Source: an uncultured Desulfarculales bacterium (GTDB lineage Bacteria > Desulfobacterota > Desulfarculia > Desulfarculales > JAHJDS01). From it: a DNA stretch of 64,000 bases. The DNA lies in NCBI GenBank assembly GCA_964569795.1, contig CAZMVB010000007.1, forward strand, positions 60,014 to 124,013, in the 5' to 3' direction. How positions within the stretch are numbered: the first letter of the stretch is position 1; every line of letters begins with the position of its first letter. Below the pieces are notes generated by a model, which was not told where the DNA came from, ran no database searches, and saw nothing but the letters and a program-made list of their open reading frames with translations. A program made the translations under genes and the position numbers. Shown here one piece after another: positions 2,441 to 60,162 of the stretch.

Positions 2441-4441
2441 CTACCCCCAAAACTGGGTCAAGAGTTGAATGAGAACGATCCCGACGAACAGCAGGGCCAG
2501 GGCCCACAGGCCCACGAACGAGGCCGAGATGCGGAGTCTTTTCTTCTGGGGCTCGGCCGAGGCCCGGACCGCGGCAAAGGGAGTCACCTCGGGTTCGGCC
2601 TGGGGCTCGGCCGTCCGGTCCTGATCCTGGCGGGCCTGGCAGGCGGGGCAGTACAGGGACCGGCCGGCCCGGGCCGCCTCTTCCGCTGCCTCCTTCTTGG
2701 CCATGAACTGGTAGTGGCAGCCCGGGCACTCGACCACCGTTGACCCGAATTCGCTCCGGCGGCACTCGGGACACAGCGGCGCGGTCCCGTTGGTGTCGAG
2801 CCGCTCGGCGGCGGCCGCGCTCTCCTCGAACTGAACACCGCACTGCCGGCAGACCATCGACACCGGCCCGGTCAGGGGCATTTTGTCGGGAAACATCTCG
2901 GGCGAGGCCTGGCCGACCTCGAGGTCCCGGGCGTAGTCCCGCATGACCTCGAGCCACCTCTCCGTGGATAACCGTTTGTTTTCACGAAATGTCTGGAAAA
3001 AGGCCCTCCGGACCTCCTGGGGCAGATTGGCCCAGATGTACAGCCACTGACCGGCCGGTTCCCGGCCCGTGGGCGCCCCGGTCAGCCCGTAGGGAAATTC
3101 CAGACGCCGGATGTTCGCCCCCGGATCGCCCCCGCCCCGCTGGGAATAGGGCGGCTTGCCCGGGACCAGGATCATGAACAGGAGTGTGGCCAGGGCGAAC
3201 ATCTCGTGAGCGGGCGTGCGCAGAAAGCCCTTGAAGTCCCGCCCCTGGATCTCGGGCGGGGTGTAGTTGACCGTGCCCACCGGGCAGGGATAGTCCTCGA
3301 CCTGATAGGAGTCGGTGTCCACGAAATAGACCGCCCCCGAGCCGTCCACCAGGATATTGGACTGGTTGACGTCGCCCACCAGGACGTTCTTGCGGTGCAG
3401 AAAGTCGAACGTCTCCAGGATCCTCAGGCAGAGCCGGACCAGATCGCCCCGGGTCAGGTGGGGAAACCTGGCCAGGAGGTCGCTCTTGGGCATGAAGACG
3501 GTCGTCTGCAGGTCCTTGCCCTGGGCCGCCTCCATGACGTAGCCGACCACCTGGTTGTCATCCCCCAGGACCAGGTCCAGGGGCCAGCACAGGCCGGGAC
3601 AGGTGAGCTGGTGATCGATCATCAGCCGCAGCTTGTCCACGTGGCGGTCGGTGATCTTGTCCGGCCGGTAGATCTTGGCCGCCAGGCCCAAATCCGTCAG
3701 AAAAATGTCGCCCTCGCCGCCGGCGCCGATCTGACGGACCAGCCGCAACCGGCCGTAACGGACCGTCAGGACGTCGTCCCCGACCCGGGGACCCCCGGCC
3801 TCGGAACCGGTTTCCGGGGCCTGGTCAGCGGCCTCCCAGGCGATGGGCCTGGTCCTGACCCGGAAGGGTCGTCCGCCGTCCATATCCTCCAGGGCGACCC
3901 CGAAGGCCTGGACCCCGGGCCGGTTGACCCGGCCGGTGAACGGGGCCTGGTTCTGGGCCCGATCCGGATGCCAGGGGACCAGCCGATACTCCCCCTCGTC
4001 CCGGACCATCTTCAGGACCAGCAGATCGTGGTGATCGGGGACGTCCTCCTCCTGCTGAAGGAAGTCGATGGTCCGGGCCAGATCAGGGTCCTGGGTGATG
4101 AGACACAGGTTGTAAGCGGCTGTATAAGTTGAAAAAACCTTGCTAAAGACCTCGTTGGACCCGGGGTCCCCGTCCGTGCCGGGGATGGTCATCAGGCCCT
4201 TTTCCTGAAGGGCCTTGAGCAACCTCAAACTCTGGGTCGCCCGGCGGGCCACCTGCTCCCGCTTGGTCCGGGCCAGGGCCTGGACCTGACCGACCACTAC
4301 CCGGGGGACGACCACCCGCCCCAGATGCCGCCCCAGGACCCCGGGCAACATCCGCCCCAGGACATGGGGCGCGCCCGGGTGCATCAACGCCGTGGCGTCG
4401 ATGAAGATCTTGTACTGTGAGGCCAGCAGGTCCAGGTGCAC
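2441..4441 (-). CDS. Ser/Thr protein kinase (YegI-like) with PIN-like N-terminal domain, C-terminal zinc ribbons and a TM anchor
   Basis: Kinase core: IGAGGEGDIF, AAKIY, VLVGDVNQSNILV, FVDTDS, TVNYTPPE. N-terminal ~135 aa: KIFIDATAL ... CLITQDPDLARTI, a PIN-like acidic pattern. C-terminus: CRQC...CPEC and CPGC...CPAC, then the hydrophobic tail FVGLWALALLFVGIVLIQLL. GTG start with a GAGGA RBS. Confidence 0.85.
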   Translation of the reverse strand: MHLDLLASQYKIFIDATALMHPGAPHVLGRMLPGVLGRHLGRVVVPRVVVGQVQALARTKREQVARRATQSLRLLKALQEKGLMTIPGTDGDPGSNEVFSKVFSTYTAAYNLCLITQDPDLARTIDFLQQEEDVPDHHDLLVLKMVRDEGEYRLVPWHPDRAQNQAPFTGRVNRPGVQAFGVALEDMDGGRPFRVRTRPIAWEAADQAPETGSEAGGPRVGDDVLTVRYGRLRLVRQIGAGGEGDIFLTDLGLAAKIYRPDKITDRHVDKLRLMIDHQLTCPGLCWPLDLVLGDDNQVVGYVMEAAQGKDLQTTVFMPKSDLLARFPHLTRGDLVRLCLRILETFDFLHRKNVLVGDVNQSNILVDGSGAVYFVDTDSYQVEDYPCPVGTVNYTPPEIQGRDFKGFLRTPAHEMFALATLLFMILVPGKPPYSQRGGGDPGANIRRLEFPYGLTGAPTGREPAGQWLYIWANLPQEVRRAFFQTFRENKRLSTERWLEVMRDYARDLEVGQASPEMFPDKMPLTGPVSMVCRQCGVQFEESAAAAERLDTNGTAPLCPECRRSEFGSTVVECPGCHYQFMAKKEAAEEAARAGRSLYCPACQARQDQDRTAEPQAEPEVTPFAAVRASAEPQKKRLRISASFVGLWALALLFVGIVLIQLLTQFWG

Positions 4442-4732
4442 GGCGTCCTCAGGGTCAGGCCGGTCCGAAGGTTCGGGCCGCAGATATCTCGTTTCGTCTA
4501 AAGAGCAACATTTGTGCCACCCGGCGCGGGGTGGAAAACTATCCGATTATAACCCGAGCCCACGGATTTGTTAACGATTTTCACTCCCCGGCCCAGGCCC
4601 GGCCGACCGGGGCCGGGTCGGTCTATTATTTCGGTTTCCCGGCTCCAAAGACTCGACCTCGACTACCACAATGTGGTAGTATAACCTCTGGGATAGGAAA
4701 ACACCAGGCCAACCATAACATCAAGGTGTGTC

Positions 4733-36391: not shown

Positions 36392-36567
36392 GGTCCGGCT
36401 CCCGGTCTTTGGTCATCCTTTCGGGCGAATAGACTTTTGGATCAATCTTATCAGAAAACGGGTCCCCGCGCCGGTAACCGCCCTTGACCGGCCCCTTGTC
36501 CGGCGGCCGGGATCGAGGTATGGTCTAGAGGTGTTTCGGAGCGTGGGTGAGACGGAGAGACCGGACC

Positions 36568-39500
36568 ATGATCTGCCCCCAGTGCGCCGCTGAAAATCCT
36601 CCTGAAGCCAGGTACTGTTCCCGGTGCGGCGCCCGGTTGCCGGCCGAGACCCAAGGCCAAGGAGTTCCCCGGGAGACGATACCGCCTCCCGCTGATGAGT
36701 CCCGGCCCCTCGAGGCCGGCCAGGTTCTCGACGGACGCTTCGAGATCGTCCGCGTCCTGGGCCAGGGGCCCCGGGGCGTGGTCTATCTGGCCCGGGACCT
36801 GGACCTGCAGGGCCGGGAGATCGCGATAAAAGTCTTTCGTCCGGAGATCACGTCCGATCCTGACCTGGACCGGGCCCTGACCCGGGGGGTGATCTCCTGG
36901 CAGGGTCTGATCCACCCGGGGGTGGTCAAGGTCTATGACCTGCGCCGGGCGGGGGAGCGCCGGTTCCTGACCGAGGAGTACGTCCCCGGGAAGGGCCTGG
37001 ACCGTTTTTTGACCGAACGCGGGGAAGGCAGACTTTCGCTGCCCGAGGCCTGCCGGGTGGGCATCGGGATCCTGGAGGTGCTGGCCTTTGCCCATCCCGA
37101 AACTCCTCACCTGGGCCTGACGCCCGGCAACGTGCTGGTCGAGGGCGAGTTCCCGGAGATCAGGGTCAAGCTGACCGACTTTGCCGTGGCCGGCCGGCTG
37201 GAGGCCGTTCGGGCCGGGGGCGACGAATCGGCGTCCGAGGGAGCGGCGGCCGACATCCAGGCCATTGGGGCCGTTCTGTACGAACTGGTGACCGGCCAGG
37301 TCCCGGCCGTCCCGGCGACGCCCCCCTCCCAGGTAATACCCGGCCTGCCCACGGGACTCGACGAGGTCCTGGCCCGGGCCCTGGACCCGGACCCGGCCGC
37401 CCGGTTCCCTGACGCGGCCCGGTTTCGGCGGGCCCTGGTGACCGTGGCCAAGGAGGCGATCGAGGCCGAACTCAGTCAGCGCCGCCAGGCCGAGGAGCGC
37501 CGGTCCAGGAACGCCCGGCCCGAGGCCGAGGCGGACCGGGCCGTGACCGACGGCCGCCTGGACCAGGCCCTCCGCCGTTACGAGGCCGTGTCGAGTCCCG
37601 ACCAACCCGGGTCCGGGGAGACCCAGGAACGCGCCCGGCGGCGGCTCACCCGGGGGGGCCGCCGCCTCGGGCTGGCCGCCGGGGCGGCGCTCCTGGTCGC
37701 GGCCGGGGTGGCGGGCTACATCCTCTGGAGGGATTACACTACCCGCCAAGACATCAAGCAGTGGACAACCCAGGCCGCCGCGGCCTGGCGGCAGGGGCGA
37801 TTCCGGGCCGCCCGCGCTTTATATCTCCGCCTGGCCCGGGTCCGTCCCGAAGATCAAGCCCTCCGCCGCCGCCTGAAGGCCTCTGCGGCCAAGATCGAAG
37901 AACTGGCCCAAGGGACGGCCCCCTTTATCGCCCGGGCCAGGCTGGCCCGGGGCCAAAAACGACTCGGACTGGCCCGGGATCAGGCCCGCCTGGCGCTCAA
38001 GGTCGATCCCCATCACCCCGAGGCCCTCCGGCTCCTGGCGGCCGTCACCGCTGACCTGAAAAAGATCAAGGCCTGGCTGGCCGCGGCCGCATCGGCCTGG
38101 CAAAAAAAGAATTACCAAACCGCCGGCCGGCTCTACCGGCAGGTAATCGGCCTCTCCAGCGAGCACCCGGTCGCAACCCGGCGACTGGCCCAGATCCCGG
38201 CCCTGATCAAGGCCCGTCGCGCCCGGGTGAATTCGCTGGCCGCCCGGGCCGGCCGGGCCCTGGACCAAAGGGACCTGACCGCGGCCGAGAAATCATACCG
38301 CTCGCTGTTGCGGCTCGATCCCAATCTCGAGTCGGCCCGGGCGGCCCTGGCCCGGATCAGGCGGATCCGAGAGCAGATGGCCGGCTGGGTGGCCCGGATC
38401 GAGAAACTGTGGCAAGACCGCAAATACGCCGCGGCCCGGGAACTCTTTTTCCGGGCCTCGGCCCTGAATGCCGCCCCGCCCCCGGCCCCGACCCGATCCC
38501 GGCCGGCCGCGGCCGACCGCCGGGAGTTGCGTAAAAAAATCGCCGTTGCCCTGGCGGCCGGACGCCGGGCCCTGGCCGCCCGGAAATGGTCCGCGGCCCG
38601 GGGCCTTTTCAGCCGGGTCCTGAAACTGGACCCGGGCAACGCCGAGGCCCGGCAGGCCCTGACGCTGATCGCCGCCCGGGCCAAACAGGTCGCCGCGGCC
38701 CAGGCCCAGGCCAAAACGGCCCTGGCTCGGGGGGACCTGGCCCTGGTGGCCGCCGCCCTGAGACGGTTCGAAAAAATCGATCCGTCTCACCCGGACGCGG
38801 CCAGGCTCAAGGCGGTTCTAGACTCCGGGATAAAGTCGCTCCTGGATCGGGCCCAACAGGCCCTGGATCAGCACCGACCGGATCAGGCCCGACAACTGAC
38901 CGAGCGGGCCCTTAGGTTGCGCCCGAAAGACCCTCGGGGCACGGCCCTGGGCGAGCGGATCAAGGCCATTCAGGCCCAGGTGGCCGCCCTGCTGACGCGG
39001 ATCGAGACGGCCCAGAACAGAAAGGACTGGACCGGGGCCGGCAAGCTGATCAAGCAGGCCGTCGCCCTGGACAGCCAAAACGCCGGCCTGGACCGACTCG
39101 TCCGGCGCGGGCGGGAGGTCCTGGCCCGGCTCAGGCCGCTGCTGGAAAAGGCCCGCCGGGCCGAGGCCAAGGGAGACCTGGCGGCCGCCCGGGAGGCCTT
39201 GCGTCGGGCCGCGGCCCTGGCCCCGGGTGACCGGGCGATCGCCGCCGCCCGGGACCGGGTGAAAAGGCGCCTGGACAGTCGGAAGGCCGTCGGTCTCAAA
39301 AAGACGGCCCGCCTGATCAAGGCCGAGAAGTGGACCCAGGCCGAAAAGGCGGTCCGGTCCGTCCTCAAGCTGGACCCGGCCTCGGCCTCGGCCTATGCCT
39401 ATCTGGGTACGGTCCGGATGGAACAAGAGAAGTTTCCAGCGGCCCTGGCCGATTACGATAAGGCCCTGAAACTGGGCCTGCCCCCCGCCAAACGGGCCGG

Positions 39501-39702
39501 GGTCCACTACATGCGCTGCTTTGTCCTGTTCCGGCTGGCCCGCCTGCGGCCGGCCGTCAAGGCCTGCAGCCGGGCCATCACCCTGGCCCCGAAACGGGCG
39601 GTCTATTACCGGGCCCGGGCGGCCATTTATCGGCGGCTGGGCCTGAGGGCCGCCGCCGCCCGGGACCAGGCCGCCTTCCGGCGGTTGAGCCGGGGCCGAT
39701 AG
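36568..39702 (+). CDS. zinc-ribbon / Ser-Thr-kinase-like (probably catalytically dead) / TM / TPR-repeat protein
   Basis: ATG at 36568 after GGAGAG. CPQC...CSRC ribbon. Kinase-like motifs GQGPRGVVY and IAIK. The catalytic loop reads HLGLTPGN instead of HRDLKPxN, and DFA replaces DFG. One TM helix (LAAGAALLVAAGVAGYIL), then ~650 aa of TPR-like repeats. Confidence 0.8.
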   Translation: MICPQCAAENPPEARYCSRCGARLPAETQGQGVPRETIPPPADESRPLEAGQVLDGRFEIVRVLGQGPRGVVYLARDLDLQGREIAIKVFRPEITSDPDLDRALTRGVISWQGLIHPGVVKVYDLRRAGERRFLTEEYVPGKGLDRFLTERGEGRLSLPEACRVGIGILEVLAFAHPETPHLGLTPGNVLVEGEFPEIRVKLTDFAVAGRLEAVRAGGDESASEGAAADIQAIGAVLYELVTGQVPAVPATPPSQVIPGLPTGLDEVLARALDPDPAARFPDAARFRRALVTVAKEAIEAELSQRRQAEERRSRNARPEAEADRAVTDGRLDQALRRYEAVSSPDQPGSGETQERARRRLTRGGRRLGLAAGAALLVAAGVAGYILWRDYTTRQDIKQWTTQAAAAWRQGRFRAARALYLRLARVRPEDQALRRRLKASAAKIEELAQGTAPFIARARLARGQKRLGLARDQARLALKVDPHHPEALRLLAAVTADLKKIKAWLAAAASAWQKKNYQTAGRLYRQVIGLSSEHPVATRRLAQIPALIKARRARVNSLAARAGRALDQRDLTAAEKSYRSLLRLDPNLESARAALARIRRIREQMAGWVARIEKLWQDRKYAAARELFFRASALNAAPPPAPTRSRPAAADRRELRKKIAVALAAGRRALAARKWSAARGLFSRVLKLDPGNAEARQALTLIAARAKQVAAAQAQAKTALARGDLALVAAALRRFEKIDPSHPDAARLKAVLDSGIKSLLDRAQQALDQHRPDQARQLTERALRLRPKDPRGTALGERIKAIQAQVAALLTRIETAQNRKDWTGAGKLIKQAVALDSQNAGLDRLVRRGREVLARLRPLLEKARRAEAKGDLAAAREALRRAAALAPGDRAIAAARDRVKRRLDSRKAVGLKKTARLIKAEKWTQAEKAVRSVLKLDPASASAYAYLGTVRMEQEKFPAALADYDKALKLGLPPAKRAGVHYMRCFVLFRLARLRPAVKACSRAITLAPKRAVYYRARAAIYRRLGLRAAAARDQAAFRRLSRGR

Positions 39703-39876
39703 GCCGTCCGGCTAACACTGACCTGTTCCCGGTCCGCTTTGCCCGGAAAGTATTCCGTTTCGACCGGAGACCAGGATTTCGATGCCCCCAGGTCAGGGTC
39801 GGCCCGGTCCGGTTTGGTCAGGGCAACCTGTTTGATTGAATAGATAAATCAAAAAATTAACCCCATCCGGCGTTCT

Positions 39877-39891
39877 TGGCACGTATCTTGT
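39877..39891 (+). promoter_or_regulatory. sigma-54-type promoter (-24 TGGCAC / -12 TTGT)
   Basis: TGGCACGTATCTTGT has correct -24/-12 spacing, but the -12 element reads GT rather than GC. About 25 nt upstream lies the AT-rich palindrome TTGATTgaatagataAATCAA (39832-39852). Confidence 0.5.
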
Positions 39892-39902
39892 TACTTAAAA
39901 AC

Positions 39903-40334
39903 ACGAAACAAGCGGACCCGGAACTGCCGGGATGACAATCCGGTTCTCGCCGGATCAAATATTCTGCTCCCGTTTCCCTCCCAACGGCGCGTGAAGGCAA
40001 GCTACACCCTGAGCCAGGGTCGGGCCAGACCCCGGTCCCAGGGAGCAGACAAAGCGGGGCCACGAACCGGCCCCAAGGTCATTGACAACCTGATAGGACA
40101 CGCCGGTGAGCGGGCGGATCGGCCGGATTCGGCGGCCCAGGCCGACCTCCTACCCGAATCCGGGGCCGCCCGCCCGGCGCTGTCGAGCACACCCCCTGTG
40201 ACACCGTTCGCCGGGTGTTGGACGGCGGTTTATCCTTCCCTCTCCCCCCCAAAAGCCGTCCAACACCTGAGCGTCGGTATAACCCGGGCGGCCGGGCGGT
40301 TGACAATCGCTCGGCCGCCCGTTTATTTTCGTTT
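39903..40334 (+). ncRNA. candidate structured non-coding RNA or long regulatory leader (class unknown)
   Basis: About 430 nt with no credible ORF. Perfect hairpins: 10 bp (40123-40132 / 40154-40163) and 13 bp (40214-40226 / 40255-40267). Ends in a 9-bp GC stem plus a T-rich tract. Bounded upstream by the sigma-54-like promoter. Confidence 0.4.
40286..40334 (+). terminator. rho-independent terminator-like hairpin
   Basis: GGGCGGCCG-17 nt loop-CGGCCGCCC followed by GTTTATTTTCGTTT, ending 29 nt before the SCP2 gene start. The loop contains TTGACA, which could alternatively be a -35 box. Confidence 0.5.
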
Positions 40335-40362
40335 AGACCACTTCTAAACAGGGGGGACTGAC

Positions 40363-40764
40363 GTGGATCAACCAGTGGCCTACCTGAGTCAGGAGTGGGC
40401 GGCCGAGGCCCTCCGGCGCCTGCAAGCGGAACTGACACCCGAGCAGATGAAATTCTTGACCACGTCCATGTCCAACCTGTACCGCAACTGTCCGGACGGC
40501 CAGGCGCGATTCCTGTTCTTCCGCTGTGAGGACGGCCGGTTCACTGACGTCACCTCGGGCCAGGGGGAGCCCCCGCCGGCCGAGTTCAGGATCACCGGGG
40601 ATTACGAGGTCTTCGCCCGGATCTCCCGGGCCGAACTCAAGTCCCAGCGGGCCCTGATGACCGGCAAGCTCAAGCTCAAGGGCAACATGGTCAAGGCCCT
40701 CAAGCTGGCCTCGATCGCCGACCGGATGAACAAGGTCCTCTCGACGATCCCGACGACCTACTGA
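40363..40764 (+). CDS. SCP2 sterol-carrier-like domain protein
   Basis: GTG start after AGGGGGGA. C-terminal SCP2 signature ALMTGKLKLKGNMVKALKL. Confidence 0.8.
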   Translation: MDQPVAYLSQEWAAEALRRLQAELTPEQMKFLTTSMSNLYRNCPDGQARFLFFRCEDGRFTDVTSGQGEPPPAEFRITGDYEVFARISRAELKSQRALMTGKLKLKGNMVKALKLASIADRMNKVLSTIPTTY

Positions 40765-40807: not shown

Positions 40808-42022
40808 ATGAGCGCCAGCGATCTGTTCTTCATCGACTTTCCGGCCCGGGTGAGCGCCGTGCAGGAGGCCATGGCCGCCCAGGGCCTCGACGTCTATCTG
40901 GGCTCCCGGCTGCGGACCCTGTCCTGGCTGACCGACGCCTTTTGTCCCTGGCGGAGCTTCGTGATCGTCCCGGCCCAGGGACTGCCCACGGCGGTCACCT
41001 TTGTCATCGACGCCGCCCGGGTGGCCGAGGACTCCTGGCTGGACGAGGACCACGTCCTGGGCTACGCCCCCATGGGCGGCATGGACCAGATCTCGCTGAT
41101 CTCGGATTACATCCGGGACGACCTGGGCCTCAAGCGAGGCCGGATCGGCATCGAGAGCGGCATGTCCAACTACCTGCCCGAGGGCAACCTGACCCATTAC
41201 GAGTACGAACAATTCGCCGATGCCCTGACGGGCTGCGAACTGGTCAACGCCCATGACATCATCGACCGGCTGTCCCTGATCAAGGACGCCGGGACCGTCA
41301 ACCGCTTCCGCCGGGCCTCGGCCATGGTCGATCAGGGCCACCGGGCCGTGTTCGAGGCCCTCCAAAACGGGGGCTGGCAGGGGATGACCGAGACCGAGGT
41401 GGCCGGCATCGCCGCGGCGGCCATGCGCCGGGCGGGCAGTGAGTGGGAGTGGTCCTTCACCGGCGGCAACGAGATCGCCTCGGGACCCCGGACCGGACTG
41501 GCCGGCGGGGCCTGCACCCCGGCCTCGCGGCGCGAATTCAAAGGCGGCGAGCCGCTGATGGTCGATCTGCACGCCATGTTCAAGCTGGGCCTGGGCGATC
41601 ACGCCCACAACTACTTCCTGGGCCGGGCCACCGACCGTCAGCTCTGGCACGCCCAGAACTTCATTGACCTGGTCACCCGCTGCCTGGCCGCCTACCGGGC
41701 CGGTGTGTCACCGTCGAGTCTGGCCGAGGAGATGATGGACCTTGCCGAGTCCCGCCAGTTCGCCGACTACATGGTCCCGGGGTTCGAGCACGGCATCGGG
41801 CTGGCCGGGGACGAGTGGCGCATCGGTCTCAACCAGGGGCCGATTCCCTACTGGACCGACCCAGACCACGTCTATCAGGCCGGCGAGCTGATCATCTGCG
41901 CCATGCAGTACGCCTGTCCGGACGAGGACGTGGGCTTCCGTTATGAAAATCCGATCCTGATCCAAGCTGAGGGGTGCGAGCCGCTGTCCAAATATCCCCT
42001 GGGGGTCGAAGTCATTCCCTGA
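40808..42022 (+). CDS. M24-family metallopeptidase (Xaa-Pro peptidase/creatinase fold)
   Basis: N-terminal creatinase-like domain plus a pita-bread core (GEPLMVDLHA..., FEHGIGL, ICAMQYA...YENPIL). Confidence 0.85.
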   Translation: MSASDLFFIDFPARVSAVQEAMAAQGLDVYLGSRLRTLSWLTDAFCPWRSFVIVPAQGLPTAVTFVIDAARVAEDSWLDEDHVLGYAPMGGMDQISLISDYIRDDLGLKRGRIGIESGMSNYLPEGNLTHYEYEQFADALTGCELVNAHDIIDRLSLIKDAGTVNRFRRASAMVDQGHRAVFEALQNGGWQGMTETEVAGIAAAAMRRAGSEWEWSFTGGNEIASGPRTGLAGGACTPASRREFKGGEPLMVDLHAMFKLGLGDHAHNYFLGRATDRQLWHAQNFIDLVTRCLAAYRAGVSPSSLAEEMMDLAESRQFADYMVPGFEHGIGLAGDEWRIGLNQGPIPYWTDPDHVYQAGELIICAMQYACPDEDVGFRYENPILIQAEGCEPLSKYPLGVEVIP

Positions 42023-42030
42023 GCCCGGGG

Positions 42031-42624
42031 TCAAAAAATATCGGGATAAAACCTCTGGGCGCATTCAGGACACAGCCCGTGCGACAGGGAGATCCGGTAA
42101 CGGCGATGGAGATAGACCTCCAGGCCCTCCCAGTGTTGGTCCCGGTTCTTGATCCTTTTACATTGGCCGCAGATGGATACGACCTCGGGCGAACCGATCC
42201 GTGACGGCCGGTCGTCCCGGTCCCGGGCGGCGGCCAGCCGCTCCTTGTCGCGGCGGGACTTGAACAGGGCCATCTCGATGGTGGCCTTCAGTTCCAGGTC
42301 CAGGAAGGGTTTCAGCAAATAGCCGTAGGGCTCGGCCTCTTTGGCCCGCTCGATCAACCAGTCATCGGCGTCGGCCGTCAAGAAGACGACCGGCACGCCC
42401 AGCCGCTCCCGGAGATCTCGGGCGCACTCGATGCCGTCCCGTTTCCCCTTGAGAACGATGTCCATCAGGACCAGATCGGGCCGGACGCTTACGGCCTGTT
42501 TCATGGCGGATCCGGCCGTGTCAACCGTGCCGCAGACCTCATAGCCCATGGTTTTCAAACTGACCCGGATGTCCTGGGCCTCCACGAAATCTTCCTGGAC
42601 GATCATGATCCTGGTGGCACCCAT
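42031..42624 (-). CDS. response regulator receiver protein with C-terminal CxxC...CPxC domain
   Basis: REC domain (IMIVQED...PDLVLMDIVL...LLKP). The C-terminal ~50 aa read ICGQCKRIKNRDQHWEGLEVYLHRRYRISLSHGLCPECA. Confidence 0.9.
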   Translation of the reverse strand: MGATRIMIVQEDFVEAQDIRVSLKTMGYEVCGTVDTAGSAMKQAVSVRPDLVLMDIVLKGKRDGIECARDLRERLGVPVVFLTADADDWLIERAKEAEPYGYLLKPFLDLELKATIEMALFKSRRDKERLAAARDRDDRPSRIGSPEVVSICGQCKRIKNRDQHWEGLEVYLHRRYRISLSHGLCPECAQRFYPDIF

Positions 42625-50588: not shown

Positions 50589-50665
50589 TGGCGCGCCAGG
50601 CAGGACTCGAACCTGCGACCTGCGGATTAGAAGTCCGCTGCTCTATCCACCTGAGCTACTGGCGC
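50589..50665 (-). tRNA. tRNA-Arg (anticodon UCU), CCA encoded
   Basis: The reverse complement folds by hand into a cloverleaf. Acceptor stem GCGCCAG/CTGGCGC, D arm GCTC-AGGTGGATA-GAGC, anticodon arm GCGGA-CTTCTAA-TCCGC, T arm GCAGG-TTCGAGT-CCTGC, discriminator G, then CCA. Confidence 0.95.
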
Positions 50666-54636: not shown

Positions 54637-54853
54637 ACTCGGCGGGCCCCCTGGGGTCCGCCGGACCCGTGAAGGATCATATCCCCGGGCTCTTGTTCGG
54701 TTGCACCTGAGAACGCCCTTGTTCAGTGGCCGTGGGGCGGGTTATAACTGACCCGTGCTGGTCGTCTTGGTTTATTTGCCGTCGATGGGCACTGAACAAC
54801 GGCGCCGATGCCGGGCGCCACTGAGGATGGTTTAAACCTTTGGGAGGTTAGTA

Positions 54854-56113
54854 ATGGCCGACGATCAAGCCAAGAGCATCTTGGTGGTGGGAGGCGGCAT
54901 GAGCGGACTGACGGCCGCGGTCGAGGCGGCCGAGGTCGGCCGCCGCGTCGTCCTGGTCGAAAGGAACCCCTACCTGGGTGGTCGGGTGGCTCAGCTGCAC
55001 CAGTATTTCCCCAAGCTCTGTCCGCCCGCCTGCGGACTGGAGATCAACTACCGGCGGCTCAGGGAAAACGACCGCATCCAGGTCCATACCCTGACCGAGG
55101 TCGAGTCCATCAGCGGCCAGGCCGGCGACTTCGAGGTGACCCTCAAGGTCAACCCGCGCCACGTCAACGCCAACTGCACCGCCTGCGGCAAGTGCGCCGA
55201 GGCCGTGGAGACGACCATCCCCAACCCCTTCAACTTCGGCATGGATACGATCAAGGCGGCCTACCTGCCGCACCCCATGGCCTACCCGCTGCGCTACGTC
55301 ATCGATCCGTCCATCGCCGCCACCGACGAGGGCCAAAAGGCGGCCGCGGCCTGCGCCTACGCCGCCGTCGAGCTGGATCAAAAGCCCGAGACGGTCACCG
55401 TCAAGGTCGGCTCCATCGTCTGGGCCGGGGGCTGGGATCCCTATGACGCCGCCAAGCTCGAGAACTACGGCTTCGGGACCTTCCAGAACGTCATCACCAA
55501 CGTGATGATGGAGCGGCTGGCCTCGGACGACGGACCGACCGGCGGCCAGATCCTGCGGCCCGGGGACGGGACACCTCCCGGCAGCGTGGCCTTCATCCAG
55601 TGCGCCGGCAGCCGGGACGAGAATCACCTGGCCTACTGCAGCGGCATCTGCTGCCTGGCCTCGATGAAGCAGGCGACCTACGTCCGGGAGCAGTTGCCCA
55701 ACACCGAGGCCTTCATCTTCTTCATCGACATCCGGACCCAGGATCGCCTCGAGCAGTTCTACGAGACGGCCAAGCTGGACGAGAAGCTCAAGTTCGTCAA
55801 GTCCAAGATCGCCCTGATCACCGAGGATGCGGCCACCGGCGCCCTGACCCTGGAGGGCGAGGACACCCGGTCCGGCGAGCAGATCCGGCAGACGGTGGAC
55901 CTGGTCGTTCTGGCCACGGGCATGGTCCCGACCACGGCCGGCCTCAAGGTCCCGGCGGACGTCAGCTACGACGACTACGGATTCATCAGCGTCGATTCCG
56001 GTGTGGCCGGCATCGTCGGGGCCGGATGCATCAAGCGCCCCAACGACGTCTCCAGTTCGGTTCAGGACGCCACGGCCGCGGCCATGAAGGCGCTGGTGGC
56101 GGCGGGGAGGTAG
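54854..56113 (+). CDS. qmoA: quinone-interacting membrane-bound oxidoreductase complex subunit A (HdrA-like flavoprotein)
   Basis: SILVVGGGMSGLTAA FAD motif and an HdrA-like body. Located directly after aprBA. GGGAGG RBS. Confidence 0.9.
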   Translation: MADDQAKSILVVGGGMSGLTAAVEAAEVGRRVVLVERNPYLGGRVAQLHQYFPKLCPPACGLEINYRRLRENDRIQVHTLTEVESISGQAGDFEVTLKVNPRHVNANCTACGKCAEAVETTIPNPFNFGMDTIKAAYLPHPMAYPLRYVIDPSIAATDEGQKAAAACAYAAVELDQKPETVTVKVGSIVWAGGWDPYDAAKLENYGFGTFQNVITNVMMERLASDDGPTGGQILRPGDGTPPGSVAFIQCAGSRDENHLAYCSGICCLASMKQATYVREQLPNTEAFIFFIDIRTQDRLEQFYETAKLDEKLKFVKSKIALITEDAATGALTLEGEDTRSGEQIRQTVDLVVLATGMVPTTAGLKVPADVSYDDYGFISVDSGVAGIVGAGCIKRPNDVSSSVQDATAAAMKALVAAGR

Positions 56114-56119
56114 CAAGCG

Positions 56120-58423
56120 ATGGATAAGAAGACCGGCGTTTACATCTGCACCGGCTGCGGAATCGGTGATCTGCTCGACGTCGACGCCCTGGTCGAGGCG
56201 GCCGAGGAATCCAGCCCCGACGAGGTCAAGACCCACGCCGCCTTCTGCGGCGGCGAGGGTTTCGCCCAGATAACGGCGGACGTGGCCGACGGGACCAACA
56301 CCATCGTCATCGCCGCCTGCAGCCCGAGGGCCTTTGCCGACAAGTTCAAGTTCGACGGCTGCATCGTCGAGCGGGCCAATCTGCGCGAGCACTGCGTTTA
56401 CGTCCAGCCCACCGACGCCGAGATCGACGCCCTGGACGAGGACGACGAGGAAAAGACCAAGCTCAAGGAGTCCCGGCAGGAACTGGCCGAGGACTACATC
56501 CGGATGTCCCTGACCCGGGTCGGCAAGACGACCCTGCCCGAGCCCTACGCCGGCGAGGAGGGGACCGAGTTCTCCAAGACGATCCTGGTCATCGGCGGCG
56601 GCGTGGCCGGGCTGACCTCGGCCCGGGACGCCTCGGCGGCCGGCTACCCGGTGGTCCTGGTCGAGCAGGAGGCCGCCCTGGGCGGGTTCGCGGGGAAGAT
56701 GCGGAAGCAGGCCCGCCTGCCCTACAAGGACCTCTACGACAAGGACGTGGACGACCTGGTGGCCGCAGTTTCGGGCGACGCCAACATCAAGGTCCTGCTC
56801 GGTGCCAAGATCGACAAGATCGAGGGCGGCCCGGGGCTGTTCGACGTCTCGATCTCGGCCGACGGTTCGAGCTCGACCGAGAAGATCGGCTCGATCGTCC
56901 TGGCCACCGGCTGGACGCCCTACGACGCCACCAAGCTGGCCGACCTGGGTTACGGCGCCAGTCCGGACGTGATCACCAACGTCCAGCTCGAGGAGATGGC
57001 CGGTCAGGGCAAGATCACCCGGCCCAGTGACGGCCAGCCGGTGACCAAGGCGGCCTTCATCCAGTGCGCCGGCTCGCGTGACCCCCAGCACCTGCCGTAC
57101 TGCTCCAGCGTCTGCTGCACCGTGTCGCTCAAGCAGGCCCTCTACCTCAGGGAGGACAACCCCGAGGCCCAGGTGTACGTCATCTACAAGGACATGCGGA
57201 CCCCGGGCCAGAGCGAGGACCTGTACCGCAAGGTCCAGCAGGACGGGGCGGTCTTCATCCGGGGTCAGGTCGAGAGCGTCGCCGCCGAGGGCGGCCAGTT
57301 GACCGTCGTCGCCCAGGACGAGCTCCTGGCCGAGTCGATCAGCCTGGACGAGCTGGACCTGGTGGTCCTGGCCACGGGCCTGGTGCCGACCACCAAGCCG
57401 ACCCGGGCGATGATCGACAAGTTCCTCAAGGCCGAGGCCGAGGCGGCTGAGGGCGACGAGGCAAAGAAGGATGAGGAAAAGGCGGGTCCGGAACTGGCCG
57501 AGGACGCGGCCCTGGCCGGCGGGAACATCTTGAACCTTCAGTATCGCCAGGGACCGGGCCTGCCCCTGCTCAAGTACGGCTACCCCGACTCGCACTTCAT
57601 CTGCTTCCCCTACGAGACCCGGCGGACGGGCATCTACGCCGCGGGCGCGGTCCGGCGGCCCATGGGCCTGACCGACGCCAAGGAGGACGCGGCCGGGGCG
57701 GCCTGCAAGGCGGTCCAGTGCACCGAGGCCACGGCCATCGGCCGGGCGGTCCATCCCCGGGCCTGGGACCTGTCCTTCCCCGAGTTCTTCATGCAGCGCT
57801 GCACCCAGTGCAAGCGGTGCACCGAGGAGTGTCCCTTCGGGGCGATCAACGAGGACGAGAAGGCCAACCCCCTGCCCAACCCGACCCGGTGCCGCCGCTG
57901 CGGGGTGTGCATGGGCGCCTGTCCGGAACGGATCATCTCCTTCAAGAACTACTCGGTGGACATGATCGGGTCGATGATCAAGTCCATCGAGGTCCCCGAC
58001 GAGGACGAGGAGAAACCCCGGGTCATCGCCCTGGTCTGCGAGAACGACGCCTACCCGGCCCTGGACGCGGCCGGCCTCAAGGGCAGGCGCCTGTCGCCTT
58101 ACGTCCGGGTGATCCCCCTGCGCTGCCTGGGGGGCCTGAACCTGGTCTGGATCGCCGACGCCCTGTCCAAGGGCATCGACGGCATCATTCTCCTGGGCTG
58201 CCGCCACGGCGACAACTACCAGTGCCACTTCATCAAGGGGTCGCTGTTGGCCGAGACCAGGCTGTCCAAGGTCTCCGAGACCCTGAACCGGCTGGCCCTG
58301 GAGAGCGAGCGGGTCCGCTTCCGCGAGGTGTCCATCGCCGACGCGGACAAGCTGCCCGAGATCATCAACGGCTTTGTGGATGATCTGGGCGAGTTCGATC
58401 CCAACCCGTACAAGGGTTTCTAG
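56120..58423 (+). CDS. qmoB: Qmo complex subunit B (HdrA-like flavoprotein with ferredoxin and MvhD-like domains)
   Basis: ILVIGGGVAGLTSA. Ferredoxin motifs CTQCKRCTEECP and CRRCGVCMGACP. C-terminal MvhD-like segment (VIALVCENDAY...LLGC). Confidence 0.9.
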   Translation: MDKKTGVYICTGCGIGDLLDVDALVEAAEESSPDEVKTHAAFCGGEGFAQITADVADGTNTIVIAACSPRAFADKFKFDGCIVERANLREHCVYVQPTDAEIDALDEDDEEKTKLKESRQELAEDYIRMSLTRVGKTTLPEPYAGEEGTEFSKTILVIGGGVAGLTSARDASAAGYPVVLVEQEAALGGFAGKMRKQARLPYKDLYDKDVDDLVAAVSGDANIKVLLGAKIDKIEGGPGLFDVSISADGSSSTEKIGSIVLATGWTPYDATKLADLGYGASPDVITNVQLEEMAGQGKITRPSDGQPVTKAAFIQCAGSRDPQHLPYCSSVCCTVSLKQALYLREDNPEAQVYVIYKDMRTPGQSEDLYRKVQQDGAVFIRGQVESVAAEGGQLTVVAQDELLAESISLDELDLVVLATGLVPTTKPTRAMIDKFLKAEAEAAEGDEAKKDEEKAGPELAEDAALAGGNILNLQYRQGPGLPLLKYGYPDSHFICFPYETRRTGIYAAGAVRRPMGLTDAKEDAAGAACKAVQCTEATAIGRAVHPRAWDLSFPEFFMQRCTQCKRCTEECPFGAINEDEKANPLPNPTRCRRCGVCMGACPERIISFKNYSVDMIGSMIKSIEVPDEDEEKPRVIALVCENDAYPALDAAGLKGRRLSPYVRVIPLRCLGGLNLVWIADALSKGIDGIILLGCRHGDNYQCHFIKGSLLAETRLSKVSETLNRLALESERVRFREVSIADADKLPEIINGFVDDLGEFDPNPYKGF

Positions 58424-58657
58424 GCGCGATCAGACGGCCCGGCCGCCTGGTCGGGCCGCCGAAATATTACGGTTCCCGGGCCCGGGACGGCCCGGGGACC
58501 GGGGACGTCCCCGATCGGGGTCACCGGCTGGCCAGCCGCGGCGACGGTATGGTATTCTCAGTCGTCCGGCGGCCGGTTCGACGGCCGGGGATCGTCCAGG
58601 GGGGTTCGGCCCGCCGCTGGCCGGAGGCCGCAGGGAACAACAAGCAACGAGAGTGCC

Positions 58658-59278
58658 ATGACCCTTCATAACAGCGCCGGTCCCGGGGAATCAGCCTCCC
58701 CGGCGACCTATAACCCGGCCTTCGCCAACGAGGTTTTCCGGAACGTGGACTCGGGCGAAGAGATCAAGATGTGCATGCAGTGCGGCGTCTGCGCCGCCTC
58801 CTGCCCCTTGTCCCTGGTGATGGACTATTCGCCCCGCAAGATCTTCACCCTGATCCGGGCCGGACGCCGGGAGGAGGTCCTGTCCAGCCGGGCCATTCTG
58901 CTGTGCACCTCGTGTTACGCCTGCAAGGTCCGCTGTCCCCGGAAGGTGCCGGTGGTGGACGTGATGCACGGCCTGGCCCGCTACGCCATCGTCCTGGGCT
59001 ACGCCTCCCGGCCCCTGACCCAGAGCTTCGGCACCCACTTCTGGGGCAGCATCTACAAGGTCGGCCGGATCGACGAGAAGGAGGTCTCGCGCAAGTACTT
59101 CTTCCGCGACGGCCCGATCAAGGCGGCCAAGTACGGCCTGGAGATGGCCGACATCGGTCTCAAGCTGATGACCCGGCGGCGGATGAAACTCCTGCCCGAG
59201 CGTCCGATTCGAGGCATCGTCGATCTGCGGAAAATGCTCGATACGGCCGCGGAAAAGGGGAAGGGGAGGGCCGACTGA
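58658..59278 (+). CDS. hdrC: heterodisulfide reductase subunit C-like iron-sulfur protein (soluble; occupies the qmoC position)
   Basis: Two motifs, CMQCGVCAASCP and CTSCYACKVRCP. No hydrophobic cytochrome-b-type domain. The RBS is weak, so the start is uncertain. Confidence 0.8.
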   Translation: MTLHNSAGPGESASPATYNPAFANEVFRNVDSGEEIKMCMQCGVCAASCPLSLVMDYSPRKIFTLIRAGRREEVLSSRAILLCTSCYACKVRCPRKVPVVDVMHGLARYAIVLGYASRPLTQSFGTHFWGSIYKVGRIDEKEVSRKYFFRDGPIKAAKYGLEMADIGLKLMTRRRMKLLPERPIRGIVDLRKMLDTAAEKGKGRAD

Positions 59279-60162
59279 TGGACTACTTCATGTATGCCGG
59301 CTGTTCGCTGGAGGGTCCCAACAGCGGGTCCCATTACCTGGTGTCCCTCGAAGCCTGCGCCGAGCCGCTGGGAATCGAGTTTCACGACCTGGAGGACTGG
59401 AGCTGCTGCGGGGCCTCGATCTCCTACGTCGGGGGCAACGAGCTTTCGGTCAAGGTCCTGGCCGCCCGGAACCTGGCCCTGGCCCAGGCCGAGGGGGGGT
59501 ATGACATCGTCGCCCCGTGCAGTTCGTGCTACATCGTCCTGAACAAGATCGGCCACGAGTTGGACGAGGACCCCGACCTCCGAGCCCGGGTCAACGAGAT
59601 CCTGGCCCAGGGGGGTCTGGAGTACAAGGGCGGCATCCGGACCCGGCACGTCCTGGACGTGCTCTACCACGACGTCGGTCCGGACAAGATCGCCGCGGCC
59701 GTGACCAAGCCGCTCCAGGGGATGAAGGTCGCCGGGTACGTCGGCTGCCAGACGGTCAGGCCTTACGGGGAATACGACTCGACCGAGCGGCCGGTGATCA
59801 TGGACCGGCTGATCAGGGCCCTGGGGGCCGAGGCGGTGGATTTTCCGCGGCGGACCCGCTGCTGCGGCTCGGGCATCTTCCTGACCGAGATGGAACTCTG
59901 CTCCTCCCTGGTCAAGGACATCCTCAAGGACGCGGTGGACCGGGAGGCCAAGCTGATCGCCACGTCCTGTCCCATGTGCCAGATGAACCTCGAGGTCTAT
60001 CAGTCGCGGATCAACAAGCTGCACGGCACCAGCTTCAACGTGCCGGTGGTGTTCATCACCCAGCTCATGGCCGCCGCCTTCGGCCTGAACCTCAAAAAGG
60101 CCGCCGCCCTGAACCGCAATCTGGGCACGGCCCGGAAGCTGGTGGCCGAGGCCGTGGCCTGA
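59278..60162 (+). CDS. hdrB: heterodisulfide reductase subunit B-like protein (two CCG domains)
   Basis: CCG-domain cysteines (WSCCGAS...PCSSCY and RCCGSG...SCPMCQ). TGATG overlap with hdrC. Confidence 0.85.
   Translation: MDYFMYAGCSLEGPNSGSHYLVSLEACAEPLGIEFHDLEDWSCCGASISYVGGNELSVKVLAARNLALAQAEGGYDIVAPCSSCYIVLNKIGHELDEDPDLRARVNEILAQGGLEYKGGIRTRHVLDVLYHDVGPDKIAAAVTKPLQGMKVAGYVGCQTVRPYGEYDSTERPVIMDRLIRALGAEAVDFPRRTRCCGSGIFLTEMELCSSLVKDILKDAVDREAKLIATSCPMCQMNLEVYQSRINKLHGTSFNVPVVFITQLMAAAFGLNLKKAAALNRNLGTARKLVAEAVA

Follow-up and report, generated by a model that had tools for sequence, protein, structure and literature searches.

The locus and the sequences compared

The DNA analysed here, a 64,000-nt stretch from an uncultured Desulfarculales bacterium (the window), carries a 660-nt gap (39703-40362) between a TPR/protein-kinase gene and an SCP2-domain gene. 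The gap is the candidate element of this report, and it has the features of a sigma-54-type promoter that would lead into a structured non-coding RNA ending at a terminator. The kinase gene upstream occupies 36547-39702 (+). Downstream, the SCP2-domain gene (40363-40764, +; GTG start at 40363) is followed by an M24 peptidase gene (40808-42022, +), and both of these have Pfam matches. A preliminary description of this DNA had proposed that the gap encodes either a stand-alone sigma-54-dependent small RNA (sRNA) or a long leader, of the attenuator or riboswitch type, ahead of the SCP2-M24 pair. The core common to the two proposals (a conserved promoter, no reading frame, plus-strand hairpins, a terminator and no Rfam match) has stood up in the comparisons given below, which fit either of the two.

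Eighty loci were gathered by querying a genome collection with the SCP2 protein, and only the closest of them, L001 (SCP2 92% identical in amino acids), has upstream DNA in common with the window. Exact-protein look-ups of near SCP2 relatives added L082, L081, L087, L093, L094 and L083, the last from the same organism as the window. A metagenome-wide DNA scan with a loop-plus-stem pattern returned a single true homolog, L084; its other two matches (L085 and L086) were rejected as chance matches. The set compared comprises seven distinct versions, namely the window, L082, L087, L081, L001, L093/L084 and L094, all from metagenomes and metagenome-assembled genomes of one narrow clade. SCP2 identity to the window is 95% in L082, 93% in L087 and 89% in L081. 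Two subtypes can be told apart: a long-5′ subtype (the window, L082, L087 and L081) and a short-5′ subtype (L001, L093/L084 and L094), whose 5′ region cannot be aligned.

In each of the seven versions the element lies directly 5′ of SCP2-M24, in the same orientation. Its upstream neighbour differs, being the kinase gene in the window and a GGDEF-EAL gene in L081, while the downstream pair is constant; the element thus belongs with SCP2-M24. Profile searches of the window and of all the loci retrieved gave no further copy, and searches of viral contigs, plasmids and phages gave none.

A sigma-54-type promoter with paired upstream sites

The promoter candidate is a −24/−12 box, TGGCACGTATCTTGT, at 39877-39891 (+). 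The preliminary description had pointed to it as TGGCAC-N5-TTGT with sigma-54 spacing, and it is kept in all seven versions as TGGCAYR-N4-YTGW. The −24 element reads TGGCA(C/T) throughout, so that the GG of TGGCAC is invariant. In the −12 element the spacing and the TG are retained, and the consensus C is replaced by T or A in every version. Boxes of this kind, with one mismatch allowed, are about as frequent in the 64 kb as expected (6 found, 5.4 expected). What lifts this one above chance is its conservation in seven versions and its fixed distance to a pair of palindromes upstream.

The two palindromes have the form TCCR-N7-YGGA and are candidate sites for an enhancer-binding protein (EBP). 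The first, TCCGCTTTGCCCGGA (39733-39747), is 144 nt 5′ of TGGCAC; the second, TCCGTTTCGACCGGA (39754-39768), is 123 nt 5′ of it and 21 nt after the first. Neither is assigned to a strand. They lie at 39733-39768, outside the region considered in the preliminary description, which missed them. The pair recurs at 144-145 and 123-125 nt upstream, with a spacing of 20-21 nt, in six of six versions (the window, L082, L087, L081, L001 and L093), these being all the sequences that extend far enough upstream. The distances are maintained in L001 and L093 although the DNA in between is unalignable, and in L081 the two half-sites of the first palindrome change together (TCCA...TGGA). Single TCCR-N7-YGGA sites are at chance frequency in the window (10 against 9.3 expected). 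The tandem pair with its exact spacing occurs once in the window, and among 92 loci at this locus only. The paired palindromes, as candidate sites recognised by sequence, fall within the ~100-200 bp 5′ of the box where upstream activator sites are expected. A separate observation concerns the start of the L001 contig (L001:1-60), where a 14-nt tandem repeat, CGCCCCACCCGATC, is present four times; every unit includes a half-palindrome, TCCG...CGA, similar to the candidate enhancer sites.

The DNA separating the palindromes from the box includes an AT-rich block (39832-39860, no strand assigned) with two features, the palindrome TTGATT-N9-AATCAA (39832-39852) and AATCAAAAAATTA (39847-39859). The latter fits the IHF consensus, WATCAANNNNTTR. 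The homologs keep AT-richness and the motif TAAATCA, but neither the palindrome nor the full IHF match. Thus the palindrome singled out in the preliminary description is present in the window, but it is not conserved as a palindrome and is not the conserved upstream element.

Judged by its motifs and their spacing, the arrangement of palindromes, AT-rich block and box is a textbook layout of a sigma-54 promoter with enhancer sites, and we consider it quite likely that the sigma-54 promoter is real. That the organism uses sigma-54 is shown by a canonical box, TGGCACAAATGTTGC, elsewhere in the window (see below).

A probable structured, non-coding transcript

From the geometry of this promoter and the U tract of a terminator just before SCP2, we infer transcription of an RNA of ~430 nt (39903-40334, +), its 5′ end set by the former and its 3′ end by the latter. 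The region is hairpin-dense, as had been noted, and its fold is more stable on the plus strand than on the minus strand. For 39900-40335 the z-score is −6.35 on the plus strand, with none of 100 shuffles as stable, and −3.81 on the minus strand. Two homologs give −3.27 and −5.48 on the plus strand and −2.29 and −3.17 on the minus strand, so that the plus strand has the lower value in three homologs.

The gap is non-coding. Its open reading frames (ORFs), which include two of 118 and 119 aa, are Arg/Pro/Gly-rich strings lacking a Pfam match, and no reading frame is conserved across the homologs; the earlier statement that the gap has no credible ORF is borne out. A 20-aa ORF with an ATG start (39932-39994) was considered as a gene and rejected, as it is frame-shifted between the window and L082/L087 and its ATG is missing in L081. 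Identity between homologs is 84-96% over the 3′ ~145 nt (~40190-40335) and 66-75% in the 5′ part of the RNA. Third codon positions of SCP2, at 67-84%, fall below the 3′ block. Within that block the lengths beside an invariant loop core differ by 0, +1 and +2 nt; as no indel here is a multiple of three, every frame is broken and the block is not coding. The pattern suggests a fast-evolving 5′ two-thirds and a functional module in the 3′ ~145 nt. No match to Rfam 15 was obtained at gathering thresholds, riboswitches, 6S, tmRNA, RNase P, SRP, Qrr, CrcZ, GlmY and RsaE included, in agreement with the by-eye comparison in the preliminary description. A permissive search gave generic hairpin matches only; the best of those below threshold, ctRNA_pGA1 (25 bits, cutoff 45), spans the terminator hairpin only.

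RNAalifold returned an identical series of hairpins from each of three alignments, all on the plus strand. The series begins with a small hairpin, AUCCGG-UUCUCG-CCGGAU (39938-39955), which the window, L082, L087 and L081 retain, with changes from U-G to U-A, and which the short-5′ subtype lacks. Next is a hairpin at 39966-39990 with the C/U-rich loop UUUCCCUCCCAA (39974-39983). Its stem and loop are invariant in the four long-type versions, with a U-A to U-G change in L087 and a compensatory pair at alignment columns 63/89, and it is absent in L001, L093 and L094. A single-stranded stretch, GGUCAUUGACAAC (40077-40089), follows, in which TTGACAA is invariant in four homologs. Then comes a long hairpin (40101-40179) whose base, CGCCGG/GCGGGCGG ... 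CCGCCCGCCCGGCG, is conserved in both subtypes and whose tip varies in length; L082, L081 and L087 have another tip or have lost it. The perfect 10-bp hairpin reported earlier, CCGGATTCGG/CCGAATCCGG (40123-40163), is indeed present; it proves to be the window's own, lineage-specific version of this variable tip.

The 3′ module starts with a C/U-rich linker (40188-40202), which reads CACCCCCUGUGAC in the window and UUCCUCCUGUGAC in other homologs (also (U)UCCUCCUGUGA); its segment CCTCCTGTGA is invariant in six of seven homologs. After the linker there is a 22-bp hairpin with a 28-nt loop (40203-40278), inside which lies the 13-bp hairpin already recognised in the preliminary description (GGTGTTGGACGGC/GCCGTCCAACACC). 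The loop, GGUUUAUCCUUCCCUCUCCCCCCCAAAA (40227-40254), contains an 18-nt pyrimidine core, AUCCUUCCCUCUCCCCCC, that is invariant in all versions. The last hairpin is the 17-bp terminator stem.

These two 3′ hairpins carry the evidence for pairing. In the alignment 98.5% of the cells of the 22-bp hairpin are paired, with one compensatory pair (GC to AU, in L087) and two wobble changes. For the terminator stem the figure is 100%, with two compensatory GC to AU pairs (L001, L093 and L094) and three G-U/G-C wobble pairs, which pair on the plus strand only. Taken together, the 39 pairs have 99.1% of their cells paired, a value that drops to 27-46% if the partners are shifted by 1-3 columns. Three pairs are compensatory (GC to AU) and five alternate between G-C and G-U. 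Read from the minus strand, or taken as part of a DNA palindrome, a G-U pair would be a C-A mismatch; it is therefore the plus-strand RNA that is under constraint. Conservation and covariation of the hairpins across related sequences, on which the preliminary description had made its proposal depend, were found, and a conserved coding frame was not. On these grounds a functional non-coding RNA is probably made.

A side observation is that the heptamer UUGACAA occupies two conserved positions in the RNA, the single-stranded stretch at 40077-40089 and the terminator loop (40298-40306). The two copies could pair 3+3 around an A-A mismatch.

The element takes the place of a tetR gene

The SCP2-M24 pair is conserved in 76 of the 80 related loci. 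In most of the other 79 genome loci a TetR-family gene of ~195 aa lies immediately 5′ of SCP2 on the same strand, and the next-closest relative (SCP2 73% identical) also has tetR directly upstream of SCP2. The tetR gene is absent in the RNA-bearing clade. The tetR-SCP2-M24 operons of Desulfobacterota, Spirochaetota and other phyla thus share the gene pair (SCP2 60-73% identical) but carry a TetR gene where the present clade has a sigma-54 promoter and a structured RNA. A sigma-54 box was not found within 700 nt upstream of SCP2 in any of the other 79 genome loci; an ancestral sigma-54 control of SCP2-M24 was considered and rejected, since those loci lack the box. As an aside, the closest tetR-type relatives (L088:3403-3757, L089 and L090; SCP2 73%) have ~355 nt between SCP2 and M24 as against 43 nt in the window.

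The replacement raises the question whether the gap is simply a tetR pseudogene or an unrecognised small protein gene. The ~195-aa tetR of the relatives is at exactly this position, the 660-nt gap is close to it in size, and ORFs of 118 and 119 aa can be drawn mechanically. A remnant of TetR was searched for in four homologous gaps, with 15 TetR proteins by tblastn and with a TetR profile against six-frame translations, and nothing significant was found: the best E-value was 0.065, and the frames were scattered. Moreover, the gap ORFs have no Pfam match, indels in the most conserved stretch break every frame, and conservation peaks in the hairpins and the pyrimidine loop in no codon-like pattern. 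A decayed or overlooked gene is therefore scarcely credible.

A predicted terminator with a promoter-like sequence inside it

The RNA would end at a GC-rich stem-loop (40285-40321, +), for which a consensus terminator scan gives 17 pairs, 13 of them G-C. The free energy of this stem-loop in the homologs is about −35 kcal/mol. The U tract UUUAUUUUCGUUU (also TTTATTTTCGTTT and TTTATTTTCG; 40322-40334, +) follows directly, as in intrinsic terminators, and ends 28 nt before the SCP2 GTG at 40363. The preliminary description had the terminator right in outline, as a 9-bp GC stem followed by TTTATTTTCGTTT; the stem is longer in the scan, and the distance to SCP2 is 28 nt rather than 29. Going by its sequence, the window's hairpin with UUUAUUUUCGUUU should terminate efficiently. 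In L082, L081 and L087 the U tract is weaker (UUUAUUCUCG).

Inside the terminator is a sigma-70-like promoter, TTGACA-18-TATTTT (40300-40329, +), with 10 of 12 matches to consensus. Its −35 element is the hairpin loop, and its −10 element is the U tract. Without exception the seven versions have TTGACA and, 17-18 nt further on, TATTYT, even those whose U tract has decayed. An SCP2-M24 mRNA initiated here would start ~27-45 nt before the start codon (~200 nt in L087). A single DNA segment seems to serve both as the terminator of the upstream RNA and as the promoter of the operon.

Could the 3′ block then work at the DNA level only, as the SCP2-M24 promoter and operator, its inverted repeats binding a dimeric regulator and any RNA being incidental? 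The invariant TTGACA-17/18-TATTYT and the inverted repeats that flank the −35 element would fit such an operator, and symmetric changes in half-sites would mimic compensatory changes. But the five pairs that vary between G-C and G-U, together with several fixed G-U pairs, are mismatches both in a DNA palindrome and on the minus strand. Arms 28 nt apart with an invariant 18-nt pyrimidine loop between them would make an atypical operator, and the conserved sigma-54 promoter and enhancer sites point into the block from 300-400 nt upstream. We consider a purely DNA-level role highly improbable.

In L087 a ~190-nt stretch (L087:3312-3500) that is absent from the other homologs is inserted between the terminator and the start of SCP2; it consists of three long near-perfect hairpins, like a miniature inverted-repeat element.

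Exposed pyrimidine strands and a possible target

Three pyrimidine-rich segments are exposed in the folded RNA: the UUUCCCUCCCAA loop, which is confined to the long subtype, the linker (40188-40202) and the loop of the 22-bp hairpin (40227-40254). CCUCC, the core of the anti-Shine-Dalgarno (anti-SD) sequence of 16S rRNA, is present in the first two. A candidate partner is close by. The SCP2 gene has a G-rich Shine-Dalgarno (SD) sequence, AGGGGGGA (40350-40357, +), which is GGGAGG or GAGGAGG in the short subtype. The duplex predicted between the loop at 40227-40254 and the SCP2 start region has a free energy of −26.1 kcal/mol, which ranks second among 46 gene starts of the window and lies in the lowest 0.8% of random windows. 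The features of a trans-acting sRNA (its own promoter, its own terminator and a conserved, accessible seed) can all be recognised here, the seed being the invariant 18-nt loop. We infer both the target and the direction of regulation, and we propose only tentatively, at below even odds, that the RNA acts by anti-SD pairing.

The same strands might instead titrate an RNA-binding protein that prefers C and U, as a sponge in the manner of CrcZ or CsrB. The size of ~430 nt, the sigma-54 dependence and the two or three repeated exposed motifs resemble CrcZ, and an invariant loop of 18 nt is longer than a typical seed. On the other hand, the motifs are no more than two or three and are not identical to one another, and no candidate binding protein was found nearby among the window ORFs scanned. 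They also hold the anti-SD core CCUCC, which base pairing explains more simply. We regard a sponge as quite improbable.

How the unit might work

Our favoured reading is that the gap is a complete sigma-54 transcription unit for a structured regulatory RNA with anti-SD-like loops; we give it a probability of about 50%. An enhancer-binding activator would bind the two TCCR-N7-YGGA palindromes (39733-39768). Bending of the DNA at the AT-rich block (39832-39860) would then let it meet the sigma-54 RNA polymerase at 39877-39891. Transcription would start near 39903 and yield a heavily folded RNA of ~430 nt, which in this genome would mostly stop at 40285-40334. The 3′ module would display anti-SD-like single strands, the linker CCUCCUGUGA and the invariant loop AUCCUUCCCUCUCCCCCC, to which long-type members would add a third, UUUCCCUCCC. 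These pyrimidine strands could pair with G-rich ribosome-binding sites, the first candidate being AGGGGGGA of the SCP2-M24 mRNA, either in trans on transcripts from the embedded sigma-70-like promoter or in cis on read-through transcripts. The net effect would be that an operon under TetR in the relatives has come under the control of a signal acting through sigma-54 and its activator.

A more elaborate version of this scheme is a regulatory swap, in which an RNA that mimics the anti-SD, made from a sigma-54 promoter, stands in for TetR. One segment would be terminator of the RNA and promoter of the operon, and sigma-54 activity would occlude or read through the operon promoter and at the same time supply an RNA that masks the ribosome-binding site. 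As a whole this is speculative and distinctly unlikely.

A different reading takes the ~430 nt to be a 5′ leader and nothing else. The sigma-54 promoter would have supplanted that of tetR and would drive SCP2-M24 itself, and the RNA would be a 5′ untranslated region with a conditional attenuator, masking of the SD in cis, or both, there being no functional free RNA. The position of the element, always directly 5′ of SCP2-M24 on the same strand (7/7) and behind a variable neighbour, is what a leader predicts, and the operon needs a promoter because tetR and its promoter are missing. The weak U tract of L001, L093 and L094 would likely allow read-through, and full-length folds place the SD in a predicted duplex in the window, L082 and L081. 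Several findings sit poorly with it. TTGACA/TATTYT at 17-18 nt is invariant even where the U tract has decayed, which points to a separate sigma-70 promoter for the operon, and the terminator of the window is strong. Inspection of the sequence and of the predicted folds revealed no antiterminator pairing (alternative folds were not searched for formally). Rfam offers no riboswitch, aptamer or leader family match, and the consensus folds show the terminator form only. Finally, the partner of the SD is inconsistent among homologs, and in L087 the 190-nt insertion separates the element from the SD. A pure leader is in our estimate somewhat unlikely. A free, terminated sRNA and a read-through leader may both occur, in proportions that differ between the subtypes.

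Several observations weigh against a sigma-54 unit with its own terminated RNA. At the promoter, the −12 element (TTGT, TTGA or CTGT) never has the consensus C in the seven versions, which is unusual for sigma-54 promoters, and neither a Sigma54_activat domain nor an EBP gene was found among the window ORFs scanned. The existence of the RNA, its start and its end are deduced from sequence. Covariation is thin: there are seven sequences and three compensatory pairs, and most pairs never vary. In L082 two adjacent mismatches (two unpaired cells) interrupt the 22-bp hairpin. At the 3′ end, the U tract is degraded in the short subtype (GCCUAUUCUC and UCUUAUUCUC in L001, L093 and L094), which makes termination doubtful and read-through likely there, and L087 has the ~190-nt insertion between the element and the SD. 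As to the target, any G-rich SD can pair with C/U-rich loops in a generic way. The full-length folds join the SD to the first loop in the window, to the linker in L081 and to the terminator tail in L082; since the partner differs between homologs, no specific duplex in cis or in trans is supported by covariation, and a consistent cis partner for the SD was rejected.

Relation to known RNAs

Regulatory RNAs that depend on sigma-54 are an established kind, Qrr, GlmY, CrcZ and NfiS being examples. Qrr of Vibrio, GlmY and NfiS combine a sigma-54 promoter and activator sites with an intrinsic terminator and a conserved single-stranded seed, and the candidate resembles them in each of these features. 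They differ in being 100-250 nt long and in belonging to unrelated sequence families; the element here has no Rfam match. In size the nearest parallel is CrcZ/CrcY of Pseudomonas, a ~400-nt sigma-54-dependent RNA that, like the candidate, has its own terminator and repeated exposed motifs. The CrcZ motifs are A-rich and bind Hfq/Crc, whereas those described here are C/U-rich, and the CrcZ covariance model gave no match to the element at E up to 10. Exposed C-rich motifs complementary to G-rich SD sequences, as in the candidate, are found in sRNAs of the RsaE/RoxS type. Those are RNAs of Firmicutes, ~100 nt long and not dependent on sigma-54, and again no Rfam match links the element to them.

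A search of the literature turned up a precedent in Desulfovibrio and nothing that matches this element. Comparative genomics has predicted four ncRNAs dependent on sigma-54 and EBPs in D. vulgaris Hildenborough, two of them downstream of DVU0653 and DVU0679 and two upstream of DVU3282 and DVU2357 (PMC4641369). The likeness extends to the host group (the former Deltaproteobacteria), the intergenic location, the sigma-54 promoter with upstream activator sites and the comparative mode of prediction. Compared by description, several of the D. vulgaris RNAs adjoin the gene for their own EBP, whereas the present element has no adjoining activator gene.

As sigma-54-dependent regulatory RNAs are known and the family is not in Rfam, the element adds a sequence family to a known kind. 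Three aspects are less ordinary: the element has replaced a TetR gene, its 18-nt pyrimidine loop is invariant, and its terminator overlaps a promoter. Few regulatory RNAs that depend on sigma-54 are known outside Gammaproteobacteria; should our reading be right, a new family from an uncultured lineage of the deltaproteobacterial type would join them. It would also be a clear case of a TetR protein repressor being swapped, at the same position of an operon, for an RNA-based module activated by a signal. Impact is limited by a very narrow distribution (seven sequences, all metagenomic) and by an SCP2-M24 pair that has no known function. The paired TCCR-N7-YGGA sites could be used to trace the activator and its regulon, and the shared terminator/promoter segment offers a testable model for how two sigma factors are coupled at one gene.

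Other features of the window

Next to M24, on the opposite strand, is a response regulator gene (42031-42624, −). Its product of 197 aa has a receiver domain and a C-terminal region of ~80 aa that has no Pfam match and bears a CGQCKRI...W..LE.YL motif. The gene adjoins M24 in L081 and L083 as well and is absent in L087. It was considered as the activator or as a relative of TetR and rejected, as it has a receiver domain only and is unrelated to the TetR of the relatives. The only Rfam match in the window at gathering score is a tRNA gene (50592-50665, −).

Two further sigma-54-like boxes lie far from the gap. The canonical box TGGCACAAATGTTGC mentioned above (4505-4519, −) is 64 nt upstream of a protein-kinase-domain gene (2441-4441, −), which is followed by genes for a VWA protein (1705-2433) and a PP2C phosphatase (569-1588). 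From this order of box and genes, the cluster is likely a sigma-54-dependent kinase/phosphatase operon. The third exact box, TGGCACTCTCGTTGC (58644-58658, −), overlaps an ATG. It lies ~416 nt upstream of a 1126-aa ORF (54848-58228, −), within the 540 nt that separate this ORF from a CCG-domain gene (58771-60162, +).

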